Below are positions 43,514 through 46,500 of a DNA stretch of 64,000 nt, piece by piece; the first letter of the stretch is position 1; each line of letters starts with the position of its first letter. Source of the stretch: Nocardioidaceae bacterium. Lineage in GTDB: Bacteria; Actinomycetota; Actinomycetes; Propionibacteriales; Nocardioidaceae. Both the position numbers and the translations under genes were made by a program. The notes below the pieces were generated by a model. The model did not search any database. It was not told the origin of the DNA and worked only from the letters and a program-made list of their open reading frames with translations. Location of the stretch: NCBI GenBank assembly GCA_040002845.1, contig JBDUDR010000001.1, forward strand, positions 8,678-72,677, given 5' to 3'.

Positions 43514-46500
43514 TGGGCAGGCGTACGGACATCTCGTCGATCCTGGTCATCGGGTCCGGACCTATCGTCATCGGGCAGGCATGCGAGTTCGACTACTCGG
43601 GGACGCAGGCTTGCCGGGTGCTGCGCGACGAGGGTCTTCGGGTGATCCTGGTCAACTCCAATCCGGCCACGATCATGACCGATCCGGAGGTCGCAGACGC
43701 TACCTATCTCGAGCCGATCACCCCTGAGTTCGTAGAGAAGGTGATCGACAAGGAGCGCCCCGACGCATTGCTCGCGACTCTCGGCGGACAGACAGCACTC
43801 AACACGGCGGTGGCCCTCGCGGAGCAGGGCGTGCTGGACAAGTACGGCGTCGAGCTCATCGGCGCATCCATCGAGGCGATCGAGGCCGGTGAGAACCGCC
43901 AATCGTTCAAGGCGGTCGTGGAGGCGCTGCCCGCACAATGGCGGGCTACCGTCGCGCGCAGCGCCATTTGTCATTCCCTGACCGACTGCCAGTCGGCGGC
44001 ACGAGATCTCGGCTATCCCGTCGTCGTACGACCGTCGTTCACCATGGGCGGGGCCGGTTCCGGGATGGCATACGACGAGGACGACCTGATTCGCTTCGCC
44101 AATGCGGGTCTGGCGATCTCGCCGACCGCCGAGGTGCTGCTCGAGGAGTCGATCATCGGCTGGAAGGAGTACGAGCTCGAGGTGATGCGCGACCGGGCCG
44201 ACAACGTCGTGGTCGTCTGCTCGATCGAGAACCTCGACCCGATGGGCGTGCACACCGGCGACTCGATCACCGTCGCGCCGGCGCAGACGCTGACCGACAA
44301 GGAATACCAGCTGCTCCGCAACGCGTCGATCGCGATCCTGCGCGAGATCGGCGTCGAGACCGGCGGCTCGAACGTGCAGTTCGCCGTCAATCCGAAGGAC
44401 GGCCGGATGGTCGTCATCGAGATGAATCCGCGCGTCTCGCGCTCGTCGGCGCTGGCGTCGAAGGCGACCGGCTTTCCGATCGCCAAGGTCGCCGCCAAGC
44501 TGGCGATCGGCTACACGCTCGACGAGCTGAGGAACGACATCACCGGCGGCGCCACGCCGGCGAGCTTCGAGCCGTCGATCGACTACGTCGTCACCAAGAT
44601 CCCGCGCTTCGCGTTCGAGAAGTTCCCGGCCGCCGATTCGCACCTCACCACGCAGATGAAGTCGGTCGGCGAAGTGATGGCGATGGGCCGCACGTTCCAG
44701 GAAAGCTTCCAGAAGGCGCTACGCGGCCTCGAGACCGGCATCGACGGACTGACCGAGCGCACCGCCTGCAAGGACACCGACCACGAGGAAATCCTCGACG
44801 AGATCACCAACGCCGGCCCCGAGCGCATCCTGTTCGTGGGCGACGCGTTCCGCATCGGCATGTCGCTCGACGAGATCTTCGAGGCCACCAGGATCGATCC
44901 GTGGTTCCTTGCGCAGATCGAAGACCTCGTCAAGACCGAACAGACGCTGCGCGGCCGCAAGCTCGAATCGCTGTCGGCCGCCGAGCTGCGCTTCGTCAAG
45001 CAGAAGGGCTTCTCCGACAAGCGCCTGGGCCTGCTGATGGGCAGCAACCAGCACGAGCTGCGCAAGGCGCGCCACGCGCTCGGCGTGCGGCCCGTCTACA
45101 AGCGCGTCGACACCTGCGCCGCCGAGTTCTCCACGCAGACGGCGTACATGTACTCCACGTACGAGAACGTCGACGGCGAGTGCGAGGCCGCGCCCACCGC
45201 GCGCAAGAAGATCATGGTGCTGGGCGGCGGGCCGAACCGCATCGGCCAGGGCATCGAGTTCGACTATTGCTGCGTGCACGCTGCGCTCGCCATGCGCGAG
45301 GACGGCTACGAAACGATCATGGTCAACTGCAACCCCGAGACCGTCTCCACCGACTACGACACGTCGGACCGCCTCTACTTCGAGCCGCTGACCTTCGAAG
45401 ACGTCTTGGAGGTCTACCACGCTGAGGTGGCCGCCGGGCCAGTGGTCGGCGTCATCGTGCAGCTTGGTGGCCAGACCCCGCTGGGGCTGGCTCAGCGACT
45501 CCACGATGCCGGAGTCCCGATCGTCGGCACCTCTCCGCAAGCCATCCATCTGGCGGAGGACCGCGGGGCGTTCGGTGCCGTCCTGGCCAGCGCTGGCCTG
45601 CCGGCCCCCCAACACGGCACCGCGACGTCGTACTCACAGGCCAAGCAGATCGCCGACCACATCGGCTTCCCGGTGCTGGTCCGGCCCTCGTACGTCCTCG
45701 GCGGCCGGGGGATGGAGATCGTGTACGACGACGAAGCGCTGCGCGCCTACATCGAGCGAGCGACCAAGATCTCGCCCTCTCACCCGGTGCTCGTCGACAG
45801 GTTCCTCGACGATGCGGTCGAGATCGACGTGGATGCCCTCTACGACGGCACCGAGCTGTTCCTTGGGGGCGTGATGGAGCACATCGAGGAGGCCGGAGTT
45901 CACTCCGGCGACTCCGCGTGCGTTCTGCCGCCGATCACCTTGGGCCGCGAAGACATCGAGCGCATCCGCTGCTCGACGCAGGCGATCGCCGCCGCTGTCG
46001 GGGTTCGCGGCCTGCTGAACGTGCAGTATGCCCTGGCCGGCGACGTGCTCTACGTGCTGGAGGCCAACCCGCGCGCATCACGGACCGTACCCTTCGTGTC
46101 GAAGGCGACCGCCACTCCGCTGGCCAAGGCGGCGGCGCGCGTGATGCTCGGCACCGGCATCGGCGAATTGCGAGCCGAGGGGGTGTTGCCCACCGGACGC
46201 GACGGTGGAGATCTTCCGCCGAACTCGCCCATCGCGGTGAAGGAGGCTGTCATGCCGTTCGACCGGTTCCGCACGCTGGATGGCCGCACCGTCGACACGG
46301 TGCTCGGTCCCGAGATGCGTTCGACGGGAGAGGTGATGGGAATGGACGCGGGCTTCGGCACCGCGTTCGCCAAGTCACAGACGGCCGCGTACGGCGGGCT
46401 TCCCACCAAGGGCACGGTGTTCGTTTCGGTGGCCAACCGCGACAAGCGGCACATGATCTTTCCGGTGAAGAGGCTGGCTGACCTGGGCTTCCAGGTGTTG

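Follow-up and report, generated by a model that had tools for sequence, protein, structure and literature searches.

A three-part mosaic carB gene with a Burkholderiales-type middle in a Nocardioidaceae metagenome-assembled genome

The pyrimidine operon and its mosaic carB gene

The stretch studied here, called the window throughout, comprises 64,000 nucleotides of a contig assigned to a Nocardioidaceae bacterium (JBDUDR010000001.1, assembly GCA_040002845.1). It carries the operon pyrR-pyrB-pyrC-carA-carB-pyrK-pyrD-pyrF, whose carB gene codes the large subunit of carbamoyl-phosphate synthase (CPS). The carB gene is a three-part mosaic in which native actinobacterial flanks enclose a middle of Burkholderiales type. 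An exact look-up identified the proteins of the window as GenBank entries MEP6525561 (efp) to MEP6525576 (coaBC), deposited as products of a metagenome-assembled genome (MAG) of a Nocardioidaceae bacterium on a 77,731-bp contig. The source of the window is therefore an assembly of a mixed community. Stop and start codons overlap within the operon, which is collinear with that of the related metagenome contig L001. Collinearity with L001 extends over window positions 33517-56849 at 92-99% identity, and the carB tract is the only large dip in these 23 kb. A second foreign tract was sought by identity to L001 (in the 23 kb) and by codon usage (in the 64-kb window) and none was found; the window has no runs of N. 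Residues 1-1088 of the carB product align to chain residues 1-1055 of Escherichia coli CarB (phmmer against PDB, E = 0, 1312 bits), and CarB homologues carry the domains PF25596, PF02786, PF02787 and PF02142. As read from its sequence, the carB product is an ordinary, intact CPS large subunit, colinear with characterised CarB over two ATP-grasp synthetase halves, an oligomerisation domain and a C-terminal allosteric domain. The coordinates of the gene, its parts and the other features of the window are listed in Table 1.

The identity of each part was determined by a search with the full-length protein, after which the amino-terminal flank, the tract and the carboxy-terminal flank were scored separately. 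The closest relatives (P0001-P0015, proteins of 1103 amino acids from JGI and ENA metagenomes) share 97-98% of residues with the amino-terminal flank, 62-63% with the tract and 97-99% with the carboxy-terminal flank. The corresponding values for proteins P0084-P0120 (1091 amino acids; P0120 is named Burkholderiaceae) are 56-58%, 92-95.5% and 47-48%. With its limits refined, the tract spans ~1.06-1.11 kb (codons ~246-601, in frame) and is 95.5% identical to the best donor proteins P0086 and P0090 (341 of 357 residues) and ~60-63% identical to native relatives. At the DNA level it matches the donor-type loci L088 and L003 at 92.9% and 91.9%, and native relatives at only 65%; in both donor loci carB stands in the order carA-carB-greA-DUF4149-yhbY-ftsJ-ftsH. 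As DNA, some 400 nt in the oligomerisation domain have no alignable counterpart in the native gene, the replacement has a net length effect of +24 nt, and the sequence of this domain is 94-98% identical to that of one Burkholderiales lineage. The alignment to E. coli CarB places the tract at residues ~241-596 of that protein. Set against the published limits of the E. coli CPS domains, it would take in the final 40% of the carboxyphosphate domain and all of the oligomerisation domain and end ~45 residues into the second synthetase domain.

A search of GTDB representative genomes with the tract gave the same affiliation. The best 80 among the matches listed are all from Proteobacteria, with uncultured Burkholderiales at the top (83-87%); the matches listed include no self-match and no actinobacterial match, an absence that is not exhaustive. 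The best-matching donor changes along the tract. It is L009-like at 44220-44320, no sequence exceeds 88-93% at 44320-44520, and the match is L088/L003-like thereafter. When the window, L001 and L088 were compared as a triplet, 321 of 352 informative sites inside the tract were of donor type and 765 of 794 outside it were of native type. With a maximum chi-square of 881, the recombination test on carB lies far above the highest value from 200 permutations (30), and it places the breaks at 44256/44259 and 45316/45333.

An earlier note on this DNA had described carB as a proteobacterial core between actinobacterial flanks, a claim borne out by the protein and DNA identities of the segments, and the peptide strings that it quoted all occur in the carB translation. 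It had also proposed that the frame is preserved and that both junctions lie in conserved motifs, which the alignments and the intact open reading frame (ORF) confirm. Three of its specifics were sharpened. The tract that it put at ~1.15 kb is present but shorter (see above); the gamma- or beta-proteobacterial affiliation holds as far as Proteobacteria are concerned and is specifically betaproteobacterial (Burkholderiales), not generic; and the second junction does fall in a conserved motif, though ~50-60 nt upstream of the predicted 45.37-45.40 kb. The first junction lies within the predicted 44.20-44.28 kb. The outcome that the note had named as refuting its claim, best matches of the tract to close actinobacterial relatives, clearly did not occur, since the best 80 among the genome matches listed are proteobacterial.

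Table 1. Features of the window (positions counted from its first nucleotide).
Feature	Position	Strand	Remarks
carB, carbamoyl-phosphate synthase large subunit	43513..46848	+	intact ORF of 1111 codons; MEP6525568.1
Native 5′ part of carB	43513..44217	+	97.2% DNA identity to L001/L089, ~66% to Burkholderiales loci; 98% protein identity to P0001
Junction 1, ambiguity interval	44218..44258	+	conserved motif ending (V/I)HTGDS; base-by-base alignment
Foreign, Burkholderiales-type tract	44259..45316	+	341/357 residues as in P0086/P0090; 92.9% DNA identity to L088, 65% to L001
Junction 2, ambiguity interval	45317..45332	+	conserved motif; identical in native and all close donor sequences
Native 3′ part of carB	45333..46848	+	96.2% DNA identity to L001/L089, ~60% to Burkholderiales loci; 98% protein identity to P0001
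carA, small subunit, native	42368..43513	+	start/stop overlap with carB; MEP6525567.1; identical protein on Logan contig L086
pyrK-like gene, native	46845..47753	+	overlaps carB stop; covered by Logan contig L087 (46621-47997 of the window; two SNPs, both synonymous)
21-nt repeat site	9902-9965	+	repeat also at L001:5180-5237
21-nt repeat site	11001-11059	-	
21-nt repeat site	35864-35921	+	
21-nt repeat site	38686-38750	-	
BldD-like regulator	38762-39256	-	protein 100% identical to L001; neighbours 91-98%
FMN riboswitch RF00050	60021-60158	+	92.5 bits, E = 6e-20; directly upstream of ORFs starting at 60163/60278

The two junctions could be confined to short intervals. At junction 1 the native relatives (L001 and L089) match the window up to 44246 and L009, a Burkholderiaceae MAG sequence, matches it from 44218 on, so that the two gene types can share 29 nt exactly (44218-44246). 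To the left the interval is firmly bounded, since every donor codes for NCIIIC in place of the NVVVVC of the host; native-specific bases stand at 44215 and 44217, and donor-specific ones at 44247 and 44259. For an island of 41 nt, position 44247 would have to be C in the native allele; with L088 as a proxy for the donor, the maximum chi-square break lies between 44256 and 44259. At junction 2 donor-specific bases run up to 45316 (A), and native-specific ones resume at 45333 (C, and C again at 45342). The island extends to 28 nt (45317-45344) for L006/L007-like donors and to a conceivable maximum of 46 nt; the 31-mer across the junction (window 45310-45340) is GAAACGATCATGGTCAACTGCAACCCCGAGA. 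In the panel of sequences used, the two longest in-register exact matches between native and donor genes over the 3.3 kb of carB are the 29 nt at 44218 and the 28 nt at 45317. Since both switch points fall on these islands, the process that formed the mosaic was driven either by homology or by k-mers. For sharing of k-mers the junction islands are long enough only at k ~29 or less (junction 1).

Codon usage changes together with sequence identity. The hand tallies of the earlier note proved almost exact. Codons ending in A or T (A/T3) number 39 of 234 upstream, 18 of 394 within the coordinates that it had given to the tract and 68 of 483 downstream (17 of the first 118); the tract differs from the flanks with p = 5e-8 (Fisher). 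Glycine is encoded by GGC in 28 of 30 codons inside the tract and in 8 of 19 upstream. When all long ORFs of the 64-kb window were scanned, the 13 windows of 100 codons with the lowest A/T3 were all inside the carB tract. Within the refined limits the tract has 18 A/T3 codons in 357 and 28 GGC in 30 glycine codons. The same codons of L088 give 18/357 and 28/29, and the native tract of L001 gives 50/349 and 12/28. The aggregate codon usage of the tract thus equals that of the donor, without amelioration, and 48 of the 64 codons that differ between the tract and L088 are synonymous. An event that left no amelioration is either extremely recent or not biological.

Relatives and a second dataset

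In at least 22 close relatives, with flank identities of 86-99%, the tract is native without exception and no less actinobacterial than the flanks. Compared with P0024, a named Nocardioidaceae protein, P0001 is 84/80/82% identical over the amino-terminal flank, tract and carboxy-terminal flank, and the window product 84/61/82%. The relatives being uniformly Nocardioidaceae-like across all three segments, the mosaic of the window is the derived state. The six cluster-mates of MEP6525568.1 are native-type fragments (P0394 ends at residue 356, P0395-P0399 start at residues 721-981) and none is a mosaic.

The cluster itself deserves mention. MEP6525568.1 belongs to a cluster formed at 90% identity and represented by a native-type fragment of 356 amino acids, and searches restricted to representatives miss the full-length mosaic; further full-length chimeras or mosaics could escape representative-only searches for the same reason. 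Short-query protein searches, which covered cluster representatives only, gave no mosaic fragment across junction 1 among the best 120 matches, a weak negative given the short proteins, and no near-donor fragment of the variable domain among the best 120 matches, likewise a weak negative. A wobble-degenerate pattern of junction 1 had 0 matches in metagenome contigs, a result that is uninformative as a native-flank control (exact in L001, JGI 3300061675) also had 0; the collection scanned therefore lacks the relevant samples. Among all sequences reached the mosaic is unique.

A near-identical strain is present in sequencing run SRR34294543. Its Logan contig L086 equals window 42114-43593 at 100% (1480 nt), and L087 corresponds to 46621-47997 with 2 synonymous single-nucleotide polymorphisms (SNPs). 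Walking the Logan contigs of this run into carB from both sides retrieved none between 43593 and 46621, and the run neither replicates nor contradicts the mosaic. A literature search for the run accession had no matches. In this actinobacterial lineage, contig ends fall repeatedly within carB, at residues 356, 721, 788, 914 and 981, and L086 stops 80 nt into the gene. Assemblies of these communities thus seem especially prone to break in carB.

Other features of the window

At no fewer than four intergenic sites, each just beyond the 3′ end of a gene (for example after aroQ and between the ends of nusB and bldD), a unit of ~21 nt (ATCCGACACTTATTCCGCGCG-like, with CCGACACTTATT as its A/T-rich core) is present three times in tandem. 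It is a dispersed intergenic repeat and is kept in the related contig L001. The BldD-like regulator is the most conserved protein of the 23 kb compared. The ORFs that follow the flavin mononucleotide (FMN) riboswitch presumably form an operon for riboflavin biosynthesis or transport.

Origin and significance of the mosaic

The tests leave the same two explanations that the earlier note had put forward, gene conversion between phyla and an assembly chimera formed at shared k-mers. Other accounts fare badly. The proteobacterial look of the tract might come without any transfer from convergence, relaxed or altered selection or a lineage-specific rate change, in favour of which there is only the general conservation of CarB. 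This is ruled out for practical purposes, its probability being close to nil: the DNA is 92.9% identical to L088 and 65% to relatives, 48 of 64 codon differences are synonymous, codon usage shifts abruptly at both borders, the maximum chi-square is 881 against 30, and a variable oligomerisation domain that is unalignable to the native one as DNA is 94-98% identical to one Burkholderiales lineage. The MAG origin of the contig could suggest a Burkholderiales contig misplaced in an actinobacterial bin. Binning works on whole contigs and cannot yield an intragenic insert, and the 1.1 kb of foreign DNA lies inside one gene with native sequence on both sides within 23 kb of collinearity, which makes contamination of the bin an extremely improbable source. 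An artefact of read polishing or cross-mapping was rejected in view of the ~400 unalignable nt, the net +24 nt and the sharp borders within highly similar sequence. On balance we favour, with modest confidence, an inter-genome assembly chimera. An assembly path through the community reads would have left the actinobacterial carB at a short stretch shared with the carB of a co-occurring, abundant Burkholderiales member (44218-44246) and would have rejoined the native sequence at the next shared stretch (45317-45332/45344). The resulting contig would hold ~1.08 kb of the gene of another organism in perfect register. We favour this reading because the source is a MAG, the mosaic is unique, the tract is unameliorated, the junctions sit on the best identity islands and contigs of the lineage fragment inside carB. 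It is favoured also by the abundance of donor-type organisms in environmental metagenomes, where donor-type contigs of 217-336 kb were found in several samples. The drift of the best donor along the tract would fit a path that passed through several related organisms of the community. In the 1997 E. coli CPS structure of Thoden and co-workers the oligomerisation and carboxyphosphate domains reportedly contact CarA; a hybrid CarB would set a foreign CarA-contact interface against the native CarA, which we count toward a chimera. Misassembled or chimeric contigs form an acknowledged and appreciable class in MAG collections, estimated at about 5% of contigs (bioRxiv 10.1101/763813). That the switch took place in software rather than in the cell is nevertheless something we infer, and several observations weigh against it. 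Both identity islands are short, with no more than 29 nt at junction 1 and 16-28 nt (at most 46) at junction 2. The final k of mainstream assemblers is larger (55 for metaSPAdes, up to 141 for MEGAHIT), and unitig-based assemblers stop at such branch nodes instead of crossing them. Two independent wrong turns are required, one in and one out. The long contig is otherwise clean (no other foreign or low-A/T3 tract, a single identity dip, no runs of N), and the ORF is intact with all its domains.

The same observations can be read as a genuine and very recent within-gene transfer from Burkholderiales into this Nocardioidaceae lineage, an explanation that we regard as quite possible, if short of probable. 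Donor DNA would have arrived directly or by way of a transient resident xenologous copy, the 29- and 28-nt islands would have anchored a gene conversion or double homeologous crossover that replaced codons ~246-601, and a functional in-frame hybrid CarB would have swept the clone. The replacement is clean and in register, and the crossovers fall on the two longest stretches of exact identity in carB, as homology-dependent recombination predicts. The minimal efficient processing segment of RecA-type recombination is ~20-30 nt in E. coli, and the lengths of the islands are near it; they also lie below the k at which common assemblers finish. The carB ORF is intact and colinear with E. coli CarB, the rest of the 64 kb is free of signs of misassembly, and the clone is present in a second dataset (SRR34294543) at 99.9-100% identity. 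Of 1462 gene sets, 286 had within-gene recombination breakpoints in the study of Chan et al. (2009, PMC2817436), and within-gene transfer between distant lineages is documented (PMC2817436, citing Inagaki 2006 and Omelchenko 2003). Against a transfer stands that the mosaic is known from a single MAG contig and that 22 or more relatives, some at 97% DNA identity, are without it. SRR34294543 is not assembled across the junctions and so provides no independent replication. The transferred tract would show no amelioration, recombination of ~65-80% identical DNA with anchors below 30 nt is extremely rare, and the event would put a foreign oligomerisation and CarA-contact region into an essential enzyme. 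How we weigh a chimera against a transfer owes as much to prior expectations about MAGs as to the sequence, which is equally compatible with both.

Under either reading the carB mosaic is of a known kind, a fragmentary transfer or recombinant mosaic gene on the one hand and an inter-genome chimeric contig on the other. The mosaic penA and pbp2x genes of Neisseria and Streptococcus are products of interspecies homologous recombination with congeneric donors at ~80-95% DNA identity, long anchors and antibiotic selection. In carB, as in these genes, a foreign block has taken the place of its counterpart in an essential gene with the register kept, and the crossovers lie where the sequence is conserved. 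Unlike them, donor and recipient of the carB tract belong to different phyla, the anchors are ≤29 nt and there is no apparent selective advantage. Fragmentary lateral transfers (Chan, Darling, Beiko and Ragan 2009, PMC2817436) likewise give part of a single-copy housekeeping gene another origin, with breakpoints inside the ORF, off the domain borders, and the frame kept. The published cases were inferred in finished genomes and are mostly of an age at which several taxa share them or amelioration has set in, whereas the carB tract is unameliorated and comes from a single MAG. Recombination of EF-1alpha between distant archaeal lineages (Inagaki et al. 2006) belongs to this literature in so far as it is cited in PMC2817436. 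The same paper refers to in situ xenologous displacement (Omelchenko et al. 2003), which carB resembles, going by that citation, in having foreign sequence in an operon gene within native context; displacement as cited there usually concerns whole genes, unlike the roughly one third of carB that is replaced. Inter-genome chimeric contigs (the 'interspecies translocations' of metaQUAST; bioRxiv 10.1101/763813) share with carB a MAG source, a switch at shared sequence and a foreign part identical in style to the genome of another organism, and the carB mosaic has no second instance among the sequences reached. Typical chimeras have one join at long repeats (rRNA, mobile elements) or between close relatives, while carB shows two switches 1.08 kb apart, between phyla and at ≤29 nt, that leave the gene perfectly in frame. 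Chimerism at the level of whole genomes is addressed by GUNC (PMC8201837).

If the mosaic is an artefact, the public, PGAP-annotated protein MEP6525568.1 would be a cautionary example, a phylum-level chimera that passes ORF, domain and synteny checks, and single-gene phylogenies and screens for horizontal gene transfer would be misled by it. It would also follow that in-and-out chimeras can arise at ~29-nt identity islands in conserved genes. It may instead be, although we tend to doubt it, that a free-living Nocardioidaceae clone very recently replaced ~1.08 kb of its carB with Burkholderiales sequence, obtained a working hybrid and persisted in at least two datasets. If so, carB would be an unusually clean, unameliorated snapshot of homeologous recombination between phyla in a core metabolic gene, with an identifiable donor lineage, crossovers resolved to less than 45 nt and sister populations that retain the native parental allele. 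It would provide a natural minimum for the homology that such events need in Actinobacteria; this requirement could then be measured directly, as could how well a multi-domain, multi-subunit enzyme tolerates the replacement of domains.

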